From Thermodesulfobium acidiphilum (GTDB taxonomy: Bacteria; Thermodesulfobiota; Thermodesulfobiia; Thermodesulfobiales; Thermodesulfobiaceae): 64,000 nucleotides of DNA. Under the pieces are notes generated by a model that did no database searches, was not told the DNA's origin, and saw only the letters and a list, made by a program, of their open reading frames with translations. Positions 50,717-63,392 of this stretch are shown here, one piece after another. Position 1 is the first letter of the stretch. Every line of letters begins with the position of its first letter. Location of the stretch: positions 332,100 through 396,099 of the forward strand of contig NZ_CP020921.1 of assembly GCF_003057965.1 (NCBI RefSeq), written 5' to 3'. A program made the translations under genes and the position numbers.

Positions 50717-53014
50717 ATGTTTAAAATTGCCAGATTACTTAGTTTCTTTAGAAAAAGATATGTCATAAAGAAGAGTAGATTATTTGATGAAATATATTAT
50801 TTAAAGTCATATCCAGATGTAAGAGCTGCTGATGTAGATCCAATAAAACACTATATATTATTCGGTGCAAAGGAAAGAAGAAATCCCAGTCCATATTTTC
50901 AGACTGCTTTTTATTTAGATAAATATCCAGATGTAGCCCAAAGCGGTATAAATCCACTCTTGCATTATATTTTATTTGGTGCAAAAGAAGGAAGATGGCC
51001 AAATCCTGAGTTTGACTCAGGATATTACTTGTTAGCAAACCCAGATGTTAAAAAGGCAGGATTAAATCCACTTCTACACTATATATTATTTGGACAACAT
51101 GAAGGCAGAAAAGCAAAAGGCAACAGTGAAGTGAGATTATTAACAATTCAAAATGAGCCTACAAAACTTATAAAACTATTGAGATTAATTAATAAAACGC
51201 ATATCAAAAAGAGCATTGATTACATAAGAATGTATGGATTAAAAGCGTTTTTTAGAAAAGTTAAGATGAAATTGGTTAGTGATAAAAGAATACAATTTTT
51301 AGATGATATGGACCATGATATTCTTTATCAATGTTGGATAACTCAGAATGAGCCATCGGTAGAGGAATTGCTTGCCCAAAGAACTACAAAATTTAACTAC
51401 GAACCCAAAATAAGTATTATTGTACCTGTTTGGACTACACCAAAGCAATTTCTAATTGATATGATAGAGTCAGTATTGAACCAAACGTATTCAAATTGGG
51501 AACTATGTATTGCAGATGGTGCAAGCAAAGAAGCCTATGTAAAAGATGTGTTAGAAGAATATATCAAAAAAGACGATAGAATTAAAGTAAAATATCTTTC
51601 TGAAAATAAAGGAATTGTTGGGAATTCAAATGAAGCTTTAAGCATATCAACAGGTGATTATGTTGCTTTGTTAGATCATGATGACACATTAGCTCCATTT
51701 GCATTATTTGAAGTAGTAAAGGCAATAAATGAAAACGAAAATGCAGATTTTATATATTCTGATGAAGATAAAATCTCAGAAGATGGTACTAAAAGATTTA
51801 ATCCACATTTTAAGCCAGATTGGAGTCCTGATACACTTAGAAGCTACAACTACATAGCGCATTTATCAGTAATAAAGAAAGAGCTTTTAAATGAAGTTGG
51901 TTGGTTTAGAGAAGGATATGACGGCTCTCAAGATTACGATCTGATACTTAGGTGTACAGAAAAAGCAAAGAAAATAGTACATATCCCTAAGATTTTATAT
52001 CATTGGAGAATATCCCAAAATTCAACTGCTCAAAATCCGAATAGCAAATTATATGCATTTGAATCTGCTAAAAAACTTTTAAAAGATCATTTGGATAGAA
52101 TTAGATTAAAGGGAAAAGTAAGGGACGGCTTGTTTCTTGGATCTTATAAAATAGACTACGATATAACTCGCAACTATAAGATTTCAATAATAATTCCAAA
52201 CAAAGATCACAAAGAAGACCTTGAAAGATGTATTAACTCTATCTTGAGTAAGTCTACATATAAAAATTACGAGATTATAATAGTTGAAAATAGCAGTACC
52301 CAAGAGAAGACTTTTAAATATTATGAATACCTACAAAATAAATACAACAACATTTTCATATTGGAGTGGAAAGATGCATTTAATTATTCAGCTGTCAACA
52401 ATTTTGCAGCTAAGTATGCTAAAGGTGATATATTACTTTTTTTAAATAACGATACTGAGGTTATAAATAAAAATTGGTTAGAAGAAATGATTCAATATGT
52501 TCAAAGAAAAGATGTAGGTGCTGTTGGTGCAAAATTATACTATCCTGATGATACGATTCAACATGCCGGCGTCATCATAGGGATGCTTGGAATTGCGGGA
52601 CATTCTCACAGGTATTTCCCTAAAAATTCTTTTGGATATTTTGGGAAGTTAGGAATTGTACAAAACTTATCAGCAGTAACTGGTGCATGTTTAATGATGC
52701 GTAAAGACGTTTTTAATGAAGTTGGAGGATTTGATGAGGAATATCCTTTAGTATTTAATGATGTAGATATTTGTTTAAAGGTAAGAGGAAAGGGATATTT
52801 AGTAGTATGGACACCTTATGCAGAACTTTATCATCATGAATCAAAAACCCGTGGATTTGAAGATACTCCAGAGAAGCAAGAAAGATTTAAGAAAGAAATA
52901 GAATTATTTAAGAAGAAATGGGGGTATATTCTTGAAAATTGCGATCCATATTACAATCCAAATTTAACTTTAGAAAGAGAGGATTTTTCATACTCAAGAA
53001 AACCGGATGTATAA
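50717..53014 (+). CDS. Dual-domain GT2 glycosyltransferase with N-terminal repeats
   Basis: Two GT2 domains (ISIIVPV...LLDHDD; ISIIIPNKD...LLFLNND); three FDxxYYLxxYPDV...NPLLHYILFG repeats. Confidence 0.9.
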   Translation: MFKIARLLSFFRKRYVIKKSRLFDEIYYLKSYPDVRAADVDPIKHYILFGAKERRNPSPYFQTAFYLDKYPDVAQSGINPLLHYILFGAKEGRWPNPEFDSGYYLLANPDVKKAGLNPLLHYILFGQHEGRKAKGNSEVRLLTIQNEPTKLIKLLRLINKTHIKKSIDYIRMYGLKAFFRKVKMKLVSDKRIQFLDDMDHDILYQCWITQNEPSVEELLAQRTTKFNYEPKISIIVPVWTTPKQFLIDMIESVLNQTYSNWELCIADGASKEAYVKDVLEEYIKKDDRIKVKYLSENKGIVGNSNEALSISTGDYVALLDHDDTLAPFALFEVVKAINENENADFIYSDEDKISEDGTKRFNPHFKPDWSPDTLRSYNYIAHLSVIKKELLNEVGWFREGYDGSQDYDLILRCTEKAKKIVHIPKILYHWRISQNSTAQNPNSKLYAFESAKKLLKDHLDRIRLKGKVRDGLFLGSYKIDYDITRNYKISIIIPNKDHKEDLERCINSILSKSTYKNYEIIIVENSSTQEKTFKYYEYLQNKYNNIFILEWKDAFNYSAVNNFAAKYAKGDILLFLNNDTEVINKNWLEEMIQYVQRKDVGAVGAKLYYPDDTIQHAGVIIGMLGIAGHSHRYFPKNSFGYFGKLGIVQNLSAVTGACLMMRKDVFNEVGGFDEEYPLVFNDVDICLKVRGKGYLVVWTPYAELYHHESKTRGFEDTPEKQERFKKEIELFKKKWGYILENCDPYYNPNLTLEREDFSYSRKPDV

Positions 53015-53378: not shown

Positions 53379-55124
53379 GTGAAAGTTAGCTTAAATAATA
53401 ATGGAAATAGCAAACAAATAGGCTCGATTGAAGTTAAAAATTTCTTTAAAATAATATATATATATATATTTACAGCAGTACCAATTATTTTTTATTTATG
53501 GATAATTTTAAGATTCACTGTCAATATGCCATGGTGGGATGATTATGACGCTGTTTTGAATTGGATCAACAGGTTTATATCTCATCAAAACAATTTTAAC
53601 TATCTGATTTCAATGCTATTTGAACAACATAACGAGCATAGAATACTTTTTGATAGAATCTTTATATTATTTAATTATTATGTTTTTGGTTCAATAAATT
53701 TTATATTTTTAAACTATATAGGATATCTTGGTTTATTCGCAATATTTGGATTAATGCTTTGGCTTAGTGTGAAAAATGGTGTGTCTGGCATATATTTACT
53801 ACCTATTCCCTTTTTGACTTTTTCGCTATGTCAATACGAATTAATTTCTTTTGCAATGGCATCTATGCAACAGTATTGGCAACTCTTTTTTTGTTTAATT
53901 GCTATCATATTAATTACTAAAAACGAAGATATTAAAACTAGTTATTTGGTATTAAGTCTTTTATTTTCTATAATAGCTTCTTTTACTGGCGCTGGCGGCT
54001 TAATAGTTTTTCCTACAACTTTAATCTATCTTATAATTTATAAAAGAGGAATTAAAAATATAATCATATGGCTATCTATATCGATATTAACATTTATTTT
54101 TTATTTTGTTATTTTACAATACCATCAAACTGCAATAGGTATAGCAAGCCATCAGTTTGTTGTTGAACATCCATTAAAATATATAGCGTATATCTTTTGT
54201 TTTATTGGAAACATTGCAGGTGATAAAATCACCTCATTTATCTTGGGATTACTTTTATTTTTATCTATTTTGTTTTTGGGCTCAAAATTTTACAAAAAAA
54301 ACACAGCGTTAATATTAATTTCATTCTTTATTATAGCAACAGCAGCAGCTGCCGGGCTTAGTAGGGTTAGTATGGGGGTAGTAGAAGCAACTTCTTCTAG
54401 ATATACTATTTACTCTTCAATATTATTAGCATGTTTGTACATTCTGTTGATTGGTAGAATAAAATCTATTCTTTACAAACGCAACATTTTTATAATTTCA
54501 AGCTTAATAGCCATATCAATTTTTTTGTGCTGGGTTCCTAAAGGTATTGCTTCATTAGAGAACAAAGAAGTTTTGTTAAAGTCAAGTCTTGTGTATCCAT
54601 CAGAACAAAGAGCTATAAAAATATTAGAAAATTCATTTAAATTGGGCACTTTTATGCCTATTGCTCAAATATATAAATTTTTGCCTTCTTATTATGCTTT
54701 TGCTATTGATCTAAATCAACCAACCTCTTACACAATAGAATCAATCACATTAAATAATACAAAACCTTTATATAACTTATCACAAAATCCTACACCTCCA
54801 ACTGATATAAATCTAACAAAAAATGATAAAAATGACATTATCCAAATATCTGGCTGGGCAGTAGACAGCGTTGCAAAAAATGCTGATAGAGGTGTTATTG
54901 CAGTAATAGATAATAAATATTTTTATCCGTTAGGAAGTGGAGTCCAAAGACCTGATGTAAGTAAGGCTTTTAATAACTCAAATTATGAATATTCCGGATT
55001 TAGTGGTTCAATACCTTTGAACGAATTAAGTTATGGGAAACACATTTTAACCTTAAGAATAATAAATTATGATGAAACTGGTTATTATGAATCTAAGCCA
55101 ATAGAACTAAATATTGAAAAGTAA
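53379..55124 (+). CDS. Polytopic membrane protein, putative GT-C (GtrC-like) with C-terminal soluble domain
   Basis: NMPWWDDY, EQHNEHR, SSRY; about 11 TMs; C-terminal ISGWAVD...RPDV...GF domain; within the polysaccharide cluster. Confidence 0.6.
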   Translation: MKVSLNNNGNSKQIGSIEVKNFFKIIYIYIFTAVPIIFYLWIILRFTVNMPWWDDYDAVLNWINRFISHQNNFNYLISMLFEQHNEHRILFDRIFILFNYYVFGSINFIFLNYIGYLGLFAIFGLMLWLSVKNGVSGIYLLPIPFLTFSLCQYELISFAMASMQQYWQLFFCLIAIILITKNEDIKTSYLVLSLLFSIIASFTGAGGLIVFPTTLIYLIIYKRGIKNIIIWLSISILTFIFYFVILQYHQTAIGIASHQFVVEHPLKYIAYIFCFIGNIAGDKITSFILGLLLFLSILFLGSKFYKKNTALILISFFIIATAAAAGLSRVSMGVVEATSSRYTIYSSILLACLYILLIGRIKSILYKRNIFIISSLIAISIFLCWVPKGIASLENKEVLLKSSLVYPSEQRAIKILENSFKLGTFMPIAQIYKFLPSYYAFAIDLNQPTSYTIESITLNNTKPLYNLSQNPTPPTDINLTKNDKNDIIQISGWAVDSVAKNADRGVIAVIDNKYFYPLGSGVQRPDVSKAFNNSNYEYSGFSGSIPLNELSYGKHILTLRIINYDETGYYESKPIELNIEK

Positions 55125-55522: not shown

Positions 55523-57172
55523 CTACTCTACGCTTAAACTTCCACTAATCACACCATCATTAAAGTTTACGCTTATATTTGATACCTCACCGTCTATAGG
55601 ACTAAATATATTTAATCTTTCAATGTGTCTGTTGTTATTTTCAATCTGAACGCTTAACTTAGCCTGTTCAGACTGAATGCTTGCAATCTCAAGCTCTTCA
55701 TTTGCCTTCAGATTAGATATATCATTCTCAATATTCTTTACTGCCTGCTCAGAGATTAAGCCTTCTCTATAAAGATTTTTATTTAATTCAAGTTCTTTAT
55801 ATTTACTTTCGAGTTTTTCTTTGTAATTTGCCTGTATCTTTTCTATAGAGTTATTTAGTTTTGAAAAATCTATATAATTTTTATTATTCTCAAGTTTTAA
55901 AGCGTCCTGTTCTTTCGATGATATAACGAGTATGTCGCCTTTCTTTACCTTCTGGCCTACTTTAACCTTTATGTCTGATATGTCAAGTGCGTTAAAGCGT
56001 ACAGTGATTTTATTTATATTTTCAGGGATATTTTTATCTGTATAATTTTTTTTCTCTGAAGTGTAATTGAGTTCTGAAGCGTGCGCTACGTCTTTATAAA
56101 CTTTCTTCTCATATCTTATTGCAAGCTTACCACTGGTTATATGTGTATTCTTTAGCCTGTCAAGGTCTTCAAGCCTTGCAAACTGTAACTCTATTCTCTT
56201 TTGGTTTAACTTTATAGGGTTATATTGTGTGGGATATGAGGCTATATGATAGTGTTCATCGTCTATATATAACTCGCCTGTAATAAATGCTCTTGTGTCA
56301 GGGTCAGTAATGCTACTTTCAATGTCTGAGATAATTTTACGTATATTCGTCCTGTAAACGCTAATATTTTTGTTTGATATCAAGATATTATCGCCTGTCT
56401 TCTCTTCCATAGAAAACGGCTGGATATTATCAGTTATGCCTTTTCCTACGCTATAGAGATATCCTGTTTCAGTGTCTTCTACTATAAGGCTATTTGCGCC
56501 TATCCATCCACAAGCCTTAAACTGCTTGTTAATCTTCTCGTGTGTAACGTTGTGAATGCCTTTAAGGTTAACAATTGTTTCTTTCTCTGATGCCTCATAT
56601 TTCACGTCTGACAATGCGCCTACTGGATTTTGAATAATTGAATGAATTATTTTTTTATAGCTCTCTGTTGGTAGACAAATAACAAATAGTAATATAAATA
56701 TTCCTGCTAATATTTTCTCTACCTTGCTACCTGGCATGAAGCCTCTAAATGCTGCATCTTTTTTCGTAATAAGTGAAAACCTGATAAATGAAGGATAAAG
56801 AAGCCTTACGCCTGTAACAGAAAAGCTTTCTAATATTAAGTGTGAAATATAGCCTATCTCTAAGCTAAGCAAATAAGAAGTGTTTAATTTAAAGATAAAG
56901 AATGCTAAGTTTATTAATAGAGAAAAAATTAGATAACATAGTATTGAGTTTGTAAAGTCTATTATTTCCTGTTGGTTAACAGTAAGCTTATTAAAAATTG
57001 TAAAGGTTGATGATTTTCTGATTTTAAAGAGTATAACTGGCGTAAAACATATAAGGTTAGAGAATACACAGAGAATATAAAAGAATACATCAATCTTTAC
57101 GTCATACGGTAAAAGTATCCTTACAAGCTGAATAAAAAGTAATGAAAAAGCTATATGAGTATAGAAGCTCAT
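55523..57172 (-). CDS. YdjM-like membrane domain fused to an MFP-type lipoyl/alpha-hairpin domain
   Basis: MSFYTH...GYISHLILESFSVTGVRLLYP (YdjM-like); C-terminal VKVGQKVKKGDILV, coiled coil, IFSPIDGEVSNI. Confidence 0.7.
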   Translation of the reverse strand: MSFYTHIAFSLLFIQLVRILLPYDVKIDVFFYILCVFSNLICFTPVILFKIRKSSTFTIFNKLTVNQQEIIDFTNSILCYLIFSLLINLAFFIFKLNTSYLLSLEIGYISHLILESFSVTGVRLLYPSFIRFSLITKKDAAFRGFMPGSKVEKILAGIFILLFVICLPTESYKKIIHSIIQNPVGALSDVKYEASEKETIVNLKGIHNVTHEKINKQFKACGWIGANSLIVEDTETGYLYSVGKGITDNIQPFSMEEKTGDNILISNKNISVYRTNIRKIISDIESSITDPDTRAFITGELYIDDEHYHIASYPTQYNPIKLNQKRIELQFARLEDLDRLKNTHITSGKLAIRYEKKVYKDVAHASELNYTSEKKNYTDKNIPENINKITVRFNALDISDIKVKVGQKVKKGDILVISSKEQDALKLENNKNYIDFSKLNNSIEKIQANYKEKLESKYKELELNKNLYREGLISEQAVKNIENDISNLKANEELEIASIQSEQAKLSVQIENNNRHIERLNIFSPIDGEVSNISVNFNDGVISGSLSVE

Positions 57173-57774
57173 AAAGTTATCTCCATTTCTTTTATTTTCA
57201 ATTCATCCTCTGTCTGCTCAAGCCTGCTTTTTATGTCAAGTAATTCTATGATCACTTTTTCCACCTCATCCCTGGTAATAAGTCCTGCATTGTATCTGTT
57301 CTGGACAATTTTAACCTGTGCCTCTTTTAATTTTAACTGTGCTTTTAAATTTTCTAACAAATTCTTTAGCCTCTTTATTTCTGCTATCTTAGCGTTATAC
57401 TCAAGCGTCAATTTCTTTTTAATCTCTTTTAAATTAGCTTCTTTTTGCTGTAGTTCAATCTTTGCAAGCTCAATTTTTTCTTTGTACGTAGAAGTATTTA
57501 AAAATATATCCGTAATATTTCCTGATACTGATATCCCTGATGTGACATAGCCTTTAGATGGGTCATATCCTGAATGATAATGAATTTCTGGCTCTGATGC
57601 CTTCTTTAACTCTTTCTTCTGAATTTCAAGGTTTATTTTAGCCTTATCGTAATCATTTTTCGCTGTGATGTATTGATTATTTTTTGCTATGTATTCGTCA
57701 AGCGTTACAATCTCATTTGCTTGTGCTTTTTGAAAGGTTAGAAGTAAAAATAATATAGTTAAGATTAGCTTCAT
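57169..57774 (-). CDS. Exported single-repeat TolC/OEP-like protein
   Basis: Signal peptide (KAQA), helix, P-initiated beta-hairpin, long helices with QNRYNAGLIT; only 201 aa. Confidence 0.65.
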   Translation of the reverse strand: MKLILTILFLLLTFQKAQANEIVTLDEYIAKNNQYITAKNDYDKAKINLEIQKKELKKASEPEIHYHSGYDPSKGYVTSGISVSGNITDIFLNTSTYKEKIELAKIELQQKEANLKEIKKKLTLEYNAKIAEIKRLKNLLENLKAQLKLKEAQVKIVQNRYNAGLITRDEVEKVIIELLDIKSRLEQTEDELKIKEMEITL

Positions 57775-58844
57775 ATAGTAATCCCAAAAAATATTTTAGA
57801 ATTCTGGATATTAGCCGTTAAAAAGCCTGGTTGTCCTGTAATCTTAAATATCTTTATTCCTGCCTTCACGGCAAGGTTATTCTCTTGATATGTGATGCCA
57901 AAAAGCCCTTTATCGTTATTGATTGAAAAATTAATATTAGTCCCTGTGTGCCTGTCCTGCCTTGTGATATTCGTATACAGGCTTATAGTTGTATTTCTGT
58001 CTTCACCGTCTCTTAAATCTTTTTCAATTGATGCGGATATAGAATAGTTAGTAATCTTATGGTATACCACTGATATTGAACTGTTAAAGTCTGCAACGTT
58101 AAAATATCTGTCTATCATAAATGTAGATTTTATTTTGTCTGATTTAGTTAATGTGTGCCTTATATTAAAGTCAAATATCTTTTTATAGCTTGACATCTGA
58201 TATGTAGGATGGCCTTTCAAGAAGTTAGCGTATATGTCAGATTTGATAGTCTTAAAATAAACGCTCTGGCTAATATAAAGGTCTTTCTTTTGTGCTATCT
58301 CTGAACCTGTAGTTGAGAAGTAATTTTCAATCTTTAATCTTTTGTGATCATACTTGTTATATATGCTGCTTCCTGATAGTGCCTTAGTTTTCTTGTCAAA
58401 CTCAGAACCTATTGAAGTAGAAAATTCACCTGTTACGTATCTGGTCCCAAAGATAACATTTTCTCTCTTTTTCTCTTTGTCTGTGCTGTCTATGTAAAAG
58501 TAGTGTATGCCGTCCTTTTCTGAGTTGTCAGCTACTGCGTAATAATATCCTTTAAGATATTTTGCCTTTGGCCTGGTGAATAAATTTTTCTTTTCTTCTT
58601 CTGGATAATCGTAAACCCTGCCCGTGAAATACTCAAAGCCTTTTTCTTTCTCTTTAAAAGATAAGCCCTGTGCGCTTCTTTGATAGTGTCCTGCCTGTAT
58701 ATAACAGTCTCCTACGTTATAACTCATAAAATAATCTTCAGCGCTAATATTGGCTTTATTTTTTGTAATCTCTAAACTTGTAACGTCTGCATAAGCCTTA
58801 TTATTTAGAGACAAAAATATAAAAATCAACAAAGTTATCCACAT
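57771..58844 (-). CDS. Hypothetical exported beta-rich protein, putative outer-membrane beta-barrel
   Basis: Signal peptide (AYA), alternating-pattern strands rich in Y/F, ends KIFFGITI. Confidence 0.55.
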   Translation of the reverse strand: MWITLLIFIFLSLNNKAYADVTSLEITKNKANISAEDYFMSYNVGDCYIQAGHYQRSAQGLSFKEKEKGFEYFTGRVYDYPEEEKKNLFTRPKAKYLKGYYYAVADNSEKDGIHYFYIDSTDKEKKRENVIFGTRYVTGEFSTSIGSEFDKKTKALSGSSIYNKYDHKRLKIENYFSTTGSEIAQKKDLYISQSVYFKTIKSDIYANFLKGHPTYQMSSYKKIFDFNIRHTLTKSDKIKSTFMIDRYFNVADFNSSISVVYHKITNYSISASIEKDLRDGEDRNTTISLYTNITRQDRHTGTNINFSINNDKGLFGITYQENNLAVKAGIKIFKITGQPGFLTANIQNSKIFFGITI

Positions 58845-58876
58845 GATATAAACAAGTTATCAACAAGTTATCCACA
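58835..58876 (+). promoter_or_regulatory. Array of four DnaA-box-like 9-mers at 11-bp period
   Basis: TTATCCACA (58835), ATATAAACA (58846, degenerate), TTATCAACA (58857), TTATCCACA (58868). Confidence 0.7.
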
Positions 58877-58884
58877 TATATCTA

Positions 58885-59589
58885 TTAGATAATTTTCCTG
58901 AAATACTGATAATAGATAAACCTAAACAAAAAAAACATAGCCCCCATTGATCCCGCAAAGATATACGTGTCTTCATCGTTTAATCCAAGCGCTATAAACC
59001 TAAGCATAATAAAGATAAATCCAAAACCAAGAAGTATAGGAACAATAGACACATATGTAGCTCCGTCATATCTTAGTGCGTGTAGTGGCTCGCCTTCAGC
59101 GTATCGCCTGGCTAATTCTTCTGCACCGTTAAGGTTGCCACATGCAAGGTTATAGATATGTCTTGCTATCTCAGATGAAATATTATATTTTTTTGTAATA
59201 TAATTTATTATCTTCTCTTTCTGTGAAAAAAGCTTTATCTCTTTCCCGTGCTTAAAAAAGGTAGTGATAATCTTCCCTGTAGGAAGAGATGAACAGCTAA
59301 CATAAACGTCATTTTTTTCAAGCATTGCCTGGATAAATATTGCGAAGCTATCTGTCAGCTTTTCTGCGTGATTTATGTAAAATGGTTGATTTAGACTTCT
59401 TAACTCGTCTGCTAAACCGTATACATTTAAACCCTTTGTCTCAACGTTTAAATTTTTCAATACCTGTCTTATACATGTAGATGGCGGTGTAGGATTGTCA
59501 ATATATATCCCAAATTTGGTTTTCATAATTGATTTTAGATGTCTTTCTCCTAAACCTGAGCTGTCTATTATGTAATAAAACGTGCCCAT
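58885..59589 (-). CDS. Degenerate AAA+-like protein with C-terminal TM hairpin
   Basis: Walker A-like IIDSSGLGER, Walker B-like FYINHAEKL, lid-like IYNLACGNL, two C-terminal TMs; GAGGAGG SD. Confidence 0.55.
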   Translation of the reverse strand: MGTFYYIIDSSGLGERHLKSIMKTKFGIYIDNPTPPSTCIRQVLKNLNVETKGLNVYGLADELRSLNQPFYINHAEKLTDSFAIFIQAMLEKNDVYVSCSSLPTGKIITTFFKHGKEIKLFSQKEKIINYITKKYNISSEIARHIYNLACGNLNGAEELARRYAEGEPLHALRYDGATYVSIVPILLGFGFIFIMLRFIALGLNDEDTYIFAGSMGAMFFLFRFIYYQYFRKII

Positions 59590-59617
59590 TTTCCTCCTCT
59601 TTTCCTTTAAGAAATCT

Positions 59618-59644
59618 AAAAGGCCGCTAAGGTTATTAGCGACC
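59618..59644 (-). terminator. Hairpin/attenuator after the secreted repeat protein gene
   Basis: On the - strand, GGTCGCTAA-TAACC-TTAGCGGCC followed by TTTT. Confidence 0.6.
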
Positions 59645-59654
59645 CTGAATTTTT

Positions 59655-60566
59655 CTACTTAGAAACTAAAGTTATAGTCTGAAGTGCAAAGGTAGCATTG
59701 GCATTAGGAATTATAACCTCTCTTATAGACTGATATCCTGATTTACTAACTCGTATAGGTACCTGTAGAATGCCGTTTGCTGGCACTACTATACTAAACT
59801 CGCCGTTAGCATTAGTAACAGTCTCAGGATATCCTACTTCTTTTAATGGTGCTGTTACCTTTGCATTAGCCACTGGATTACCCACTGCGTCAAGAACCTG
59901 TCCCGTTATAGTGGCTGTAGTTGTAGGCAGTACGTCTACGGTTACATTTTCATTAGCTACTGTAGTTGTGTCTTTGGTTACATTAAACTGTCCTGTAGCC
60001 ATTGTATTCTTTATCCCATGCCCTAAAACTCTAACGTAATAGATAAAAGTAGAAGTATCATTTGGCTTTATTGCCTTTAGCGTGTATGTGCCGTCCTGCG
60101 CTGTTGTAGCCTTATCTACGACGTATTTACCCATAGTAGTACTTCCAAATCTTGGATCTTCTTTCATCAGTTGAACTACCAGGCCGCCTATTCCGTTGCC
60201 TGATGCGTCAGCTACCTTGCCTGTAACTGCTGCTGTGCCTCCTGCTGAAGGCATAGCCTTTATAGATATGTTTTTGTTTTTGGTAGTGATAGATACGGAT
60301 TTGTCAACTCCAACATATCCTGTCTCTTTAACCTCGACTGTATAAACGCCTGAGTTAACGCCTGTAAAGAGAAACCTACCCGCGCTATCAGCTGTAACCT
60401 CCTTAAGAATATTACCAGAGCTGTCCTTTAGGTCTACAGTAGCGCCTGAAAGAGTAGCGGCTGTCTCAGCATCTATAATCTTGCCTTTGATATCCATTGC
60501 GTTTGCTGCTGATACAAGAATTAGTAAGCTTGAGCCAATCATTAAACCGCTTAAAAGTTTGTTCAC
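59655..60566 (-). CDS. Secreted protein with three carboxypeptidase-regulatory-like (transthyretin-like beta-sandwich) repeats
   Basis: GTG start after AAGGAGG; signal peptide ending ANA; repeats IKGKIIDA...GATV, VTGKVADASGNGI, ITGQVLDAVGNPVANAKV with T.A.G.F/Y motifs. Confidence 0.8.
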   Translation of the reverse strand: MNKLLSGLMIGSSLLILVSAANAMDIKGKIIDAETAATLSGATVDLKDSSGNILKEVTADSAGRFLFTGVNSGVYTVEVKETGYVGVDKSVSITTKNKNISIKAMPSAGGTAAVTGKVADASGNGIGGLVVQLMKEDPRFGSTTMGKYVVDKATTAQDGTYTLKAIKPNDTSTFIYYVRVLGHGIKNTMATGQFNVTKDTTTVANENVTVDVLPTTTATITGQVLDAVGNPVANAKVTAPLKEVGYPETVTNANGEFSIVVPANGILQVPIRVSKSGYQSIREVIIPNANATFALQTITLVSK

Positions 60567-60848
60567 TCTAACCCTCCTTAAAATTATTTGTTTTTCTAAG
60601 GCCAAAATCTAATTTAATACAAGCAAATCGCATCACCCCCATATGATTAATTATCAAAAATAATAAATTATAATAGATAATTTGTCAATATCTGAAATTG
60701 AAAGTAAGTATAAAAGTATAAGATAGTTAATTATCTTCCAGATAAAATTTATTGTGGATTGAATATGAAGGTCTTAGGGGAGATAAAAATTGACTTTAAA
60801 TATTACGTATAATTGTTTTATTTGCAATTATTTATTCCTGATAGAGAT

Positions 60849-63392
60849 TCAGGAGTTTAATATTTTATGAAGTTCACTCTTTGACATTGGCCTGTAAAAC
60901 AAAAATCCCTGATAGTAATCGCATCCCATTGATTTTAGGATTTCAAACTGTTCTACAGTCTCTACACCTTCTGCTATGGTTTTTATGTTTAGGGATTTTG
61001 ATAGGGCAATGATTGCGTTTGTAACGTTTTTTGTGTCTTTATCGTTTAGGTTTTTTACAAAAGATGTGTCTATTTTTAGGAAATTTACTTTTAGCTTTGA
61101 TAGATAAGAGAGGCTTGAATATCCTGTGCCAAAGTCATCAATGCTAAAAAATATATTAAATTTCTTTAAGTTTTCTATAAGATTTCTTATATACTCAAAG
61201 TTTTCTAAAAAGGATCTTTCAATAATTTCTATATTTAATATGTTATGAGAAATATCTATGTTTATATTGCCTTTTACTTTTCTTCGGGTTAGTTTCGATA
61301 TAAGGCTTTGGGATAGGTCCTTTCTAAATAAGCTTTTTATAGAGAGGTTGACAGAAACTGGAAAACTAAAACCTAGTTCACTTATATCGTCTAAAACATT
61401 ATCGATTATTAAATCTTCAACATCTACAATATATTGCCCAGCTTCCAGCTCTTCTATAAATTCCGATGGCAACAGGATATTATCGCCTTTCTTCCATCGC
61501 ATCAGGGCTTCTAACCCGACTATATTTTTATCTCTATCTACATATGGCTGATAATAAACAATGAATTCTTTATTTGACACTGCGCGTTCAAGTTCAGTTA
61601 TTAAATTCAACCTTTTTATGACATCTTCTTCAATATCTTTTCTGAAAAAGCCAATCTGATTTTTTCCCTTTTGTTTTGCATCTACCAGCGCAATGTTTGC
61701 CATTTTTAGTATTTCAGATGGGTTGTTTACATCCTTTGATATGAATATTATTCCAAGATTAAATTCAAGAATAATATGACTGTTTCCTGTGTTATATGGC
61801 ATTGCGAGTTCTTTTAAAATTTTTTTGGCAACTAGTAACACATCCTCTTTAAATCTCAGAGGTCTTATCAATACTCCAAATTTTTCTGATTCAAGTCTTG
61901 CTACAATGTCATTTTTTTCCACTATTTGATTTAGTCTGGACGCTATCAGACTAAGCAATTTATTCCCTGTGTCAAACCCAAAGGCTTCGTTTATCCTTCT
62001 AAATTCTTGTGGATCAATTAATATTAGCGCTCCAATTTGATCTTCGTATTTTACTGTTTGACAAAATTTTTCTATTTCTTTAATAAAATAATTAGTATTT
62101 GGTAAATTTGTTATGGGATCGTAGAAAAGCGCCTTTTCAAGACTTTTTAAGAGTTCATCCTCCCTTTCCAATATTTTGCCGATAACAATATAATTGGTAA
62201 CTTTTTCCCCTTTAAAATAAGGCATAATATTTACAAGAAAATCTTTAGGAGAGTTATCCTTGAGCCTATAACTTATTACTCCAGTATATTGCCTGTCTGA
62301 AGAAAGCCTCTTGTAAATATCCTTTTTAAAGTCTTCTGATTGTTCAAAAAAACAAAAATCAATAAGATCTTTCCCGATAATTTCATTAGTTTGATATCCA
62401 GAAAGTTTTTTGGCTTTATCGTTTGCATATAATATTTTAAAGTTATCGTCTACTATACATACAAATTCGAAGCTTTTGTTTACTGCAGAAAGAATAAGTT
62501 GATACCACTTTTCATTTTCAACTTTTTCCAGGGCAAAAGATATGTCTAATTTTATCTGTTCCAGGAGGTGCAGGTGATCACTGTCAAACGTATTCGCAAT
62601 AGTGTCGTGCAGGAGCAAAATATATTTTACCTCTCCTCTCTTTAATATTGGGATTGAACAGGCTGAAGATATGTTGAATTTGTTGAAAAAGTCATGCCAG
62701 TAGTGACCTGATTCAAGTTTTGAAATCTGAGAAATCAGGCTTATCTCTTTTGTGTGATAGGCTTTTGAAACCGTGCCTGTGCCATATGGGGTGTTTGGGT
62801 CTGCGCCAATCGTTAAAGATTTAAGGGCATCTTCTATCTCTTTTGTTTTGGCTTTTGTATAAATTTGTCTAAACAGCTTATTCTCATCTATATAGCCTAT
62901 GGCACAATCCAGGTAACCAACCTCATCAATAGCTATTTCACAAATTTTTTCAAGAATTTCTTCCTCATCTTCAATCCTTACTATTAACTGATTTATCTGG
63001 CTTAAGGTGAGAAATAGCTTTTCAAATGACTTTTCTTTTGTTCTGTCAAGGATTAAAACCAGTCCAGAGTATTTGTTGTTATATTCTATTGTATAGGCAA
63101 AGAGAGATACAGGAATTATCGCATTAGTTCTGGATTTAAGATAGTGTTCTATATATTCAGCTGCAAAAATCTCTCCCTGGGCTTTTCTTTTTATATGCGA
63201 TTTAACTTCATCAACATCTGAAGCTACCAGCTCTATTGCACTTTTCCCAATTAGCTCTTCTTTGCTGTCATACTTTAAAATTTGTGCTATCTTGTCGTTT
63301 GCAAAAACAATTTTAGCCTCTTCTCCTTGATATATGTATACTCCAAATACAGATGAATTTAATAGGAATTGGAACGTTTGCAGGTTAGACAT
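60849..63392 (-). CDS. PAS-GAF-PAS-GGDEF(degenerate)-EAL c-di-GMP phosphodiesterase
   Basis: YDPITNLPN, ARLESEKF (dead GGDEF), EALMRW, DDFGTGYSSL, AEGVET, QGF. Confidence 0.9.
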   Translation of the reverse strand: MSNLQTFQFLLNSSVFGVYIYQGEEAKIVFANDKIAQILKYDSKEELIGKSAIELVASDVDEVKSHIKRKAQGEIFAAEYIEHYLKSRTNAIIPVSLFAYTIEYNNKYSGLVLILDRTKEKSFEKLFLTLSQINQLIVRIEDEEEILEKICEIAIDEVGYLDCAIGYIDENKLFRQIYTKAKTKEIEDALKSLTIGADPNTPYGTGTVSKAYHTKEISLISQISKLESGHYWHDFFNKFNISSACSIPILKRGEVKYILLLHDTIANTFDSDHLHLLEQIKLDISFALEKVENEKWYQLILSAVNKSFEFVCIVDDNFKILYANDKAKKLSGYQTNEIIGKDLIDFCFFEQSEDFKKDIYKRLSSDRQYTGVISYRLKDNSPKDFLVNIMPYFKGEKVTNYIVIGKILEREDELLKSLEKALFYDPITNLPNTNYFIKEIEKFCQTVKYEDQIGALILIDPQEFRRINEAFGFDTGNKLLSLIASRLNQIVEKNDIVARLESEKFGVLIRPLRFKEDVLLVAKKILKELAMPYNTGNSHIILEFNLGIIFISKDVNNPSEILKMANIALVDAKQKGKNQIGFFRKDIEEDVIKRLNLITELERAVSNKEFIVYYQPYVDRDKNIVGLEALMRWKKGDNILLPSEFIEELEAGQYIVDVEDLIIDNVLDDISELGFSFPVSVNLSIKSLFRKDLSQSLISKLTRRKVKGNINIDISHNILNIEIIERSFLENFEYIRNLIENLKKFNIFFSIDDFGTGYSSLSYLSKLKVNFLKIDTSFVKNLNDKDTKNVTNAIIALSKSLNIKTIAEGVETVEQFEILKSMGCDYYQGFLFYRPMSKSELHKILNS

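Follow-up and report, generated by a model that had tools for sequence, protein, structure and literature searches.

Organization of the g1-g5 cluster

The window analyzed in this work, a stretch of 64,000 nucleotides from the chromosome of Thermodesulfobium acidiphilum (contig NZ_CP020921.1, positions 332,100 to 396,099), carries on its minus strand, at window positions 55523-60566, a cluster of five co-oriented open reading frames (ORFs), here called g1 to g5, that are seen both in the ORF list and in the sequence itself. Read in their own direction, all on the minus strand, they are g1 (59655-60566, 303 aa), g2 (58885-59589, 234 aa), g3 (57771-58844, 357 aa), g4 (57169-57774, 201 aa) and g5 (55523-57172, 549 aa), the last composed of a YdjM-like domain, a middle domain and a hairpin of the membrane fusion protein (MFP) type. 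Genes g3 and g4 share an ATGA overlap at 57771-57774, and g4 and g5 share another at 57169-57172; the overlaps and the common orientation of the genes had been described at the same coordinates in the original prediction for this locus, which was made from the sequence alone. The start of g1 is a GTG codon located 7 nt downstream of AAGGAGG, and the start residue is identical in its orthologues; the longest frame of this gene opens at TTG 60605.

Domain content of the five proteins

The five proteins had been read, from their translations, as a secreted repeat protein (g1), a membrane-anchored AAA+-like protein with broken Walker motifs (g2), an exported beta-rich protein (g3), a half-size TolC (g4) and a fusion of a YdjM-like domain to an MFP module (g5), and Pfam and NCBIfam families, fold matches and a motif alignment support all five readings. 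The N-terminal part of g5 (residues 1-170; 56663-57172, minus strand) is a polytopic membrane domain of the YdjM/DUF457-like type, matched by the Pfam family YdjM (PF04307) at residues 72-165 only (E 9.8e-8; 32.1 bits, cut-off 29). YdjM of Escherichia coli is an SOS-regulated inner-membrane protein whose activity is not established. The motifs TH.., LPDIDT, GHRTxTHS and SHxxxD are kept in 17 canonical relatives, whereas in the Thermodesulfobium proteins LPDIDT and GHRTxTHS are replaced, SHxxxD is changed to SHxxxE, and H6 is not present in every member of the genus. The following middle domain (residues 171-355; 56108-56662, minus strand), which is probably periplasmic, is specific to the family and aligns across all relatives, but it matched no family or fold already described (the best Atlas score, 0.75, is uninformative).

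The C-terminal part of g5 (residues ~385-549; 55523-56020, minus strand) shows the order lipoyl half, coiled-coil hairpin, lipoyl half that is typical of MFPs. Biotin_lipoyl_2 of Pfam matches residues 398-415, the NCBIfam family RND_mfp matches residues 398-539 at E 8.9e-7, which is under its cut-off, and a profile of g5 compared with the PDB aligns residues 401-538 to residues 31-173 of MacA (E 0.023) in that same order. The protein ends about 10 residues past the second lipoyl half, without a beta-barrel or membrane-proximal domain. An exhaustive hidden Markov model (HMM) search with the g5 profile of a library of 50% representatives found 126 proteins at E<=1e-3, 35 of them at E<=1e-10, and about 20 relatives align over the full length, from YdjM and middle domain through lipoyl half, coiled coil and lipoyl half. 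All 16 distant matches that were scanned contain YdjM at E 1e-22 to 1e-31, with a lipoyl motif in 7, and the long-form YdjM proteins of other phyla all have the two lipoyl halves around a coiled coil.

Gene g4 encodes a protein with a signal peptide that matches Pfam OEP (PF02321) at E 4.7e-14 with a score of 53.1 bits (cut-off 22; 50.1 bits when the whole genome was scanned), in a single stretch that spans positions 66-181 of the 187-position profile. The genome encodes no other single-repeat OEP but has, elsewhere, three canonical OEP proteins of 445, 454 and 472 aa with two matches each; because of these it is that of a diderm with ordinary TolC-type proteins.

No family of Pfam or NCBIfam matched g2, and its assignment comes from the fold. 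In a predicted model with a predicted local distance difference test score (pLDDT) of only 70.3, the alpha/beta core and lid of AAA+ proteins were matched: Foldseek returned RFC, ORC, Cdc6, NB-ARC and MuB at E ~3e-4, and VIA-align gave Z 11.2 to MuB (184 residues, root-mean-square deviation 6.1), 9.9 to ORC2/Cdc6 and 8.7 to TnsC. The protein ends in a transmembrane (TM) hairpin at residues ~180-230 that is nearly invariant within the genus, and its comparison by hhalign with the AAA+ partners of YdjM genes, described below, gave Prob 95.9% and E 5.6e-9 over 214 columns, the TM hairpin included. In an alignment of 29 sequences, Walker A (GxxGxGK[ST]) and Walker B (hhhD[DEN]) are intact in 24/24 relatives, whereas the five Thermodesulfobium sequences all have SGLGE[RK] in place of Walker A and YINH[AG]E in place of Walker B, such that GK[ST] is changed to G-E-[RK] and D-[DE] to H-[AG]. 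Compared with the same relatives, the Thermodesulfobium proteins lack about 25 N-terminal residues and an insertion of about 60 residues. The genome of the window has no intact second copy of this AAA+ gene, and no DNA-binding part is recognizable in g2.

The two remaining proteins, g1 and g3, have signal-peptide-like N-termini. Three CarboxypepD_reg repeats, which are beta-sandwiches of the transthyretin-like type, follow in g1 (Pfam PF13620, E 1.2e-26, 3 stretches). Neither Pfam nor NCBIfam matched g3; its predicted model, with a pLDDT of only 34, is all-beta with ~24 strands arranged in hairpins, and among the named Atlas clusters OmpG-type porins come closest, with a score of 0.86, which is under the 0.9 level and serves as a lead only. 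From this model, g3 is a candidate outer-membrane beta-barrel protein.

Conservation of the cluster in Thermodesulfobium

The closest relatives of g5 are Thermodesulfobium proteins, with 77% identity to Thena_0413 of T. narugense. Three other genomes labelled Thermodesulfobium were available (G001-G003), and the complete cluster, with unchanged gene order and both 4-nt overlaps, is found in G001 (locus L006), in G003 (L007) and on the metagenome contig L010; a further metagenome locus, L009, has four of the five genes and is cut by the end of the contig. This synteny rules out chance as the origin of the five-gene arrangement. Pairwise comparisons with 3-4 orthologues per gene gave ratios of nonsynonymous to synonymous substitution rates (dN/dS) of 0.09-0.19 for each of the five genes, with dS close to saturation in the farthest pairs, and g1 shows the smallest dN of the set (dN/dS ~0.10). 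By these ratios all five genes are under purifying selection, and their proteins are hence still in use.

A wider AAA+/YdjM module in other phyla

In a sample of 401 genomes, full-length matches to g5 outside the genus were present in G218 and G180, and matches to YdjM plus the middle domain in G084, G251 and G361. The YdjM gene adjoins a gene for a 297-441-aa AAA_16/AAA_22 protein in all five of these loci, and in these AAA+ neighbors the Walker motifs are intact and a TM hairpin forms the C-terminus. The translation of the AAA+ gene of G180 (L029:7091-8416) contains a run of X that makes its C-terminal hairpin unreadable. A tyrosine integrase gene is adjacent in 3/5 loci. The phyla of G218, G180 and G084 are represented by 4, 7 and 5 genomes only, and searches made phylum by phylum there added one locus.

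For breadth, one genome per species was scanned for the YdjM motif of this subfamily, which gave 218 stretches, of which 210 were confirmed and 80 kept for all the counts that follow; their 888 ORFs come from a crude custom caller, and many of the loci for which no AAA+ gene was called are cut by contig ends or miscalled in high-G+C DNA. An AAA+ family gene lies at most 3 genes away from the YdjM gene in 59/80 loci and directly adjacent to it in 29/80. The loci are taxonomically scattered, in Patescibacteria, Abditibacteriota, Bacteroidota, Ignavibacteria, Rhodothermales, Methylococcales, Competibacter, Trueperaceae, Deinococcus, Thermaceae, Latescibacterota, Margulisiibacteriota, Saganbacteria, Acidobacteria, Fusobacteriota and others. 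One is on a plasmid of Methylomicrobium lacus (NZ_CP169219.1, L093), and two Competibacter metagenome-assembled genomes (MAGs) have at least 4 copies each (L050, L053, L066 and L067 in one, L058, L059, L062 and L081 in the other); the plasmid and the multiple copies suggest that the module rides on, or is, a proliferating mobile element.

Tyrosine-recombinase-like ORFs are present in 33/80 loci, in 27 of them within 5 kb. In 16 loci the recombinase catalytic domain and an AAA+ domain with its TM hairpin are encoded in one ORF, as Pfam confirmed in the seven tested. These seven fusions (L047:5328-7004, L090:3182-4651, L106:285-1829, L069:4426-6003, L113:3664-5205, L095:856-2319 and L073:4099-5574), all of 487-558 aa, share Phage_integrase (E 1e-19 to 5e-41), AAA_16/AAA_22 and the TM hairpin, and their product would be a membrane-anchored recombinase-ATPase. 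Other neighbors of the module are of the kind met in mobile elements and defense islands, namely resolvase, RepA_C, primases, AbiEi, Bro-N, SLFN_AlbA_2, HD, PLDc_2 and a NERD helicase. The YdjM proteins themselves give weak matches to Zn_dep_PLPC (E 1e-4 to 1e-2). A YdjM/middle-domain protein with a C-terminal PLDc_2 is encoded at L054:1147-2802, on a 2.8-kb contig of a Thermococci archaeon MAG whose binning is doubtful, and L036 has a separate PLDc_2 gene near the module. The genome of the window has only two Phage_integrase matches, at 635.7 and 852.1 kb; the cluster, at 387.6-392.7 kb, is separated from both by 244 kb or more, and the context of the cluster is ordinarily chromosomal.

The membrane pair is also found next to candidate envelope parts. 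In three Trueperaceae loci (L044, L055 and L065) the gene order is AAA+ (308-309 aa), a protein of 222-234 aa and a YdjM-hairpin fusion of 563-566 aa, and the protein in the middle matches Pfam OEP over the whole single repeat at E 1.8e-9, above the cut-off. The same half-OEP family is present in L084, L100 and L101 (E 1.7e-12 for the L100 protein, above the cut-off), which brings it to 6/80 loci of Deinococcota type, and AAA+, single-repeat OEP and YdjM-hairpin genes stand side by side in loci of Trueperaceae, Deinococcales and Thermaceae type. A family of 201-304 aa in 6 loci of the Bacteroidota group resembles both the Deinococcota set (hhalign Prob 78.7%) and g4 (64.6%), with a Pfam OEP match at E 0.003 that is under the cut-off. 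In 4 Latescibacterota loci a separate HlyD_D23/HlyD_3 gene of 242-252 aa overlaps the stop of a short YdjM gene and is the split counterpart of the YdjM-hairpin fusion. Nine loci, mostly of the Margulisiibacteriota group, have a Poly_export protein of 165-209 aa, encoded right after the YdjM gene in 6. Among the ~160 neighbor proteins of related loci scanned with Pfam there was no transporter of the ATP-binding cassette (ABC), resistance-nodulation-division (RND) or major facilitator superfamily (MFS) type.

Two further candidates for an outer-membrane partner were rejected: the 198-aa signal-peptide and coiled-coil protein of G218, with Prob 3% in hhalign against g4 and no Pfam match, and a signal-peptide family of 212-322 aa in 15 loci of Methylococcales/Competibacter type, with Prob 27.7% and 2.0% and no match in PDB or Pfam.

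The exported proteins g1 and g3 behave differently from the membrane pair. Homologues of g3 were seen in Thermodesulfobium-like sequences only, its HMM found 0 matches in the 888 ORFs, and the HMM of g1 found one weak match there; as far as was searched, g1 and g3 appear to be confined to the genus and absent as companions of the module elsewhere. Repeat proteins of other types were noted near the module: two DUF11-repeat surface-type proteins (446 and 671 aa) between the half-OEP and YdjM-hairpin genes of a Deinococcales MAG (L084:2926-6342), and a PEGA-domain protein in G218 (L028:12794-13855). Proteins made of beta-sandwich repeats may recur with the module, as g1 does in Thermodesulfobium.

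Regulatory signals and neighboring genes

Upstream of g1, a consensus scan found a promoter-like site, TTGACA-17-TATTAT, at 60660-60688 on the minus strand with 11/12 matches; such sites are not more common in the region than in shuffled sequence, so that the evidence for this one is weak. Between g1 and g2, the hairpin that the original prediction had placed after g1 is indeed found at 59620-59646 (minus strand) as a terminator-like structure, with an 11-pair stem, 5 of them G-C pairs, followed by a T-rich tail; it is a consensus match only, and its role as an attenuator is putative. The G+C content around g1 (59500-60500) is 0.38-0.43 against ~0.30 in the surroundings, which could result from its amino-acid content, rich in Gly, Ala, Thr and Val, or from high expression. 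Opposite g4, an antisense ORF of 131 aa on the forward strand (57155-57550) has counterparts of equal length in L006 (5933-6328) and L007 (3976-4371), and is most likely a stop-free reverse frame of a Lys/Glu-rich coiled-coil coding region and no gene.

Directly upstream of g1, on the same strand (60849-63392), is a gene for an 847-aa PAS/GAF/PAS-GGDEF-EAL protein, and G001 has an 852-aa ORF in the matching position (L006:9590-12148); a link through cyclic di-GMP between the cluster and this gene is possible. Downstream, on the forward strand, follow the genes for a 765-aa protein with two GT2 glycosyltransferase domains (50717-53014) and for a polytopic membrane protein of 581 aa that ends in a soluble domain (53379-55124), which look like cell-surface glycan genes beside the cluster.

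Discussion

The cluster resembles the tripartite efflux and type I secretion systems in having an OEP-family protein, an MFP-type lipoyl/coiled-coil hairpin that would reach toward it, and translationally coupled genes, and it departs from them in each of the three parts. Tripartite systems use two OEP repeats per protomer of a trimer, whereas g4 is a 201-aa protein with one. Their MFPs combine lipoyl, hairpin and beta-barrel domains, with or without a membrane-proximal domain, whereas g5 has neither barrel nor membrane-proximal domain and its hairpin is fused through the middle domain to a YdjM-like domain. And where those systems have an ABC, RND or MFS transporter, we found none in the five genes, as had been claimed from the sequence, or in their neighbors; the sole protein with the fold of a nucleoside triphosphatase (NTPase) is the AAA+ protein with dead motifs.

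The relation to the wider AAA+/YdjM module is closer, since g2 and g5 are homologous to its membrane pair and share with it the adjacency of the genes, the TM hairpin of the AAA+ protein and the middle domain. However, the Thermodesulfobium copy is without the recombinase, the Walker residues and the His/Asp motifs of YdjM, its AAA+ protein is shortened, and it has g1 and g3 in addition. With respect to the YdjM/DUF457 family, the membrane domain of g5 is above the gathering score, but most of the motifs are replaced, and the domain is followed by another 380 residues that make up periplasmic domains. With respect to the AAA+ ATPases of the initiator/loader, STAND and transposition-regulator kind (MuB, TnsC, ORC/Cdc6, NB-ARC), the fold is matched by residues 1-186 of g2, but g2 is without the P-loop lysine and the acidic residues of Walker B and is anchored by its C-terminal TM hairpin. 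By score, then, the cluster falls within OEP and, by a small margin, within YdjM, and it belongs to AAA+ by fold only. No family of PADLOC-DB 2.0.0 matched the five proteins at E<=0.01, and among the partner ATPases of the module only two gave matches, which were weak and to the P-loop. In the literature on YdjM/DUF457, membrane fusion proteins, single-repeat TolC and the outer membrane of Thermodesulfobium we found no published description of an architecture that joins YdjM, AAA+ and OEP. We take the cluster to be new as a system, and infer its function from what its parts resemble.

In our judgment the balance tips slightly toward the five genes being one operon for a non-enzymatic, envelope-spanning assembly that derives from the wider mobile module. 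The ancestor would have been a horizontally mobile membrane module made of a Xer-like tyrosine recombinase, an AAA+ ATPase with a TM hairpin and a YdjM/DUF457 protein with a periplasmic domain. In many lineages the YdjM protein bears in addition a lipoyl/coiled-coil hairpin of the MFP type, and its gene stands beside one for a single-repeat OEP. In Thermodesulfobium the recombinase has been lost, the motifs of the ATPase and the metal-ligand motifs of YdjM have been destroyed and the genus-specific g1 and g3 gained, and all five proteins are kept by selection. The assembly itself may be pictured with an inner-membrane base formed by the TM hairpin of g2 and the YdjM domain of g5, from which the middle domain and the hairpin of g5 would span the periplasm toward g4; this protein, as a presumed hexamer whose six single repeats would equal the 3 x 2 repeats of the TolC trimer, would form the outer-membrane end. 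A beta-barrel partner in the outer membrane could be provided by g3, and g1 would be a secreted beta-sandwich passenger or a component of the surface or the periplasm. Without a working NTPase, such a structure would serve as a static tether, or as a conduit that is passive (or gated in some other way), and not as a pump driven by ATP.

Support for the trans-envelope part of this proposal comes above all from the other phyla, where the membrane pair recurs with periplasm-spanning and outer-membrane parts in both fused and split form; because the module recurs with OEP and hairpin parts elsewhere, a trans-envelope architecture is reasonable. The conservation of gene neighborhood that the original prediction had looked to is found at three levels, as synteny within the genus, as the AAA+/half-OEP/YdjM-hairpin trio in Deinococcota-type loci and as the AAA+/YdjM pair in most loci of the breadth scan. 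Its idea of a non-canonical trans-envelope system is thus borne out insofar as the architecture recurs in other phyla, but the system does not stand alone: it is a degenerate derivative of a wider module that normally comes with a tyrosine recombinase. That the cluster acts as a passive scaffold or conduit, and not as a pump, is the most likely reading because the recombinase, the Walker residues and the metal motifs of YdjM have been lost.

Several observations weigh against the proposal of an envelope-spanning scaffold. The direct comparison of g4 with the Deinococcota half-OEP set gave only Prob 42.7% and E 2.5e-4 in hhalign, with the alignment in register, that with the 198-aa protein of G218 only Prob 3%, and the g4 HMM found 0 matches in the 888 ORFs; because these direct matches are modest, the homology of the OEP partners across phyla is argued from their separate Pfam OEP matches. 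The MFP identity of the C-terminus of g5 comes from weak scores (the sub-cut-off E 8.9e-7 and the E 0.023 to MacA), and the barrel of g3 from a model of pLDDT 34 and Atlas look-alikes that are mere leads. A dead P-loop is still compatible with nucleotide binding or with another source of energy. Contact between g2 and g5 is suggested by a complex prediction that used their own alignments, in which g2 with residues 1-360 of g5 scored 0.32 against 0.01 for the best control, with at least 73% of contacts agreeing between runs and a partner pLDDT of at least 72; this is a weak pass, since the mark was passed by 58/80 solved complexes and 2/110 mismatched pairs, and at scores of 0.60 or less by only 7/80 and both of the mismatches. 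Finally, in G002 (94% complete, 140 contigs) neither g2 nor g3 was found, and of g5 there is no more than the 3' end, located at the edge of a contig and disrupted by a frameshift or stop codons, so that the cluster may be dispensable or decaying in one species, or merely unassembled there. A different glycosyltransferase gene follows the g5 remnant in that genome.

It was first proposed that the cluster is an active, non-canonical tripartite system for secretion or appendage assembly, in which the place of the pump is taken by YdjM and the AAA+-like protein, with g1 as cargo or subunit. The inner-membrane, MFP-hairpin and OEP components are indeed there, g1 is secreted, highly conserved and first in the operon with a terminator-like hairpin after it, and the Deinococcota-type trio has an intact ATPase. 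However, we consider such an active system unlikely for Thermodesulfobium: the Walker A lysine and the Walker B acidic residues are replaced in all five sequences and the YdjM motifs largely gone, which contradicts the view that these two proteins stand in for the pump as enzymes; no energy source is recognizable in the cluster, and outside the genus the module is not accompanied by g1 or g3. A somewhat smaller probability goes to a device of conflict (anti-phage or anti-plasmid) or of mobile elements, with the AAA+ protein as switch, a YdjM effector resembling zinc phospholipase C or P1 nuclease and the recombinase as partner, of which the Thermodesulfobium copy would be a fixed relic still acting at the envelope, for example by excluding DNA or phage. 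The recombinase-like ORFs within 5 kb in 27/80 loci, 16 of them fused to AAA+, the resolvase, RepA_C, primases, AbiEi, Bro-N, SLFN_AlbA_2, HD and PLDc_2 among the neighbors, the plasmid of Methylomicrobium lacus and the at least 4 copies in each of two Competibacter MAGs all favor such a device, as do the weak Zn_dep_PLPC matches and an AAA+ fold nearest to MuB, ORC/Cdc6, STAND and TnsC. In the window, though, the copy has neither the recombinase nor either of the two catalytic sites, its context is ordinarily chromosomal, and PADLOC gave no match for its proteins and only the weak P-loop matches for two partner ATPases.

A decayed efflux or type I secretion locus, which lost its ABC or RND pump and whose remaining genes are drifting to pseudogenes, would explain the missing pump, the half-size OEP, the truncated MFP part and the dead NTPase motifs, as well as the lack of an intact cluster in G002. 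Yet dN/dS is 0.09-0.19 in all five genes, frames and overlaps are intact in 4 other loci, and in other phyla the family normally has just such a half-size OEP and truncated hairpin module. The possibility, raised together with the original claims, that homologous loci always include a canonical pump does not apply, as no ABC, RND or MFS transporter is among the ~160 scanned neighbors of related loci. Decay is therefore very improbable and already largely refuted.

Beyond the preferred reading of a scaffold derived from the module, one may speculate on the module itself, with no more confidence than we give to the conflict device. It might be a machine across the envelope by which mobile elements process DNA or some other macromolecule. 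A membrane-anchored tyrosine-recombinase/AAA+ unit (in some cases one polypeptide), the YdjM domain in the inner membrane, an MFP-hairpin adaptor in the periplasm and a hexameric half-TolC exit would then form a new tripartite class, driven or gated by AAA+ in place of an ABC, RND or MFS pump; Thermodesulfobium would then have domesticated its skeleton, with the enzymes off, as a fixed component of the envelope.

If the scaffold reading is true, the cluster would be the first envelope bridge of the TolC/MFP type to have a YdjM domain and an AAA+ protein at its base where others have a transporter, and g4 and its counterparts would be natural half-TolC proteins, bearing on the origin of the TolC barrel by duplication. 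The family link provides a functional handle on the YdjM/DUF457 proteins and on the small membrane-anchored AAA_16 ATPases that are encoded beside, or fused with, Xer-like recombinases in many phyla, two large groups so far without a function. The Thermodesulfobium copy is a natural experiment in which both catalytic sites were lost and strong purifying selection persists, so that the scaffold itself would be of use to this deep-branching thermophilic diderm.

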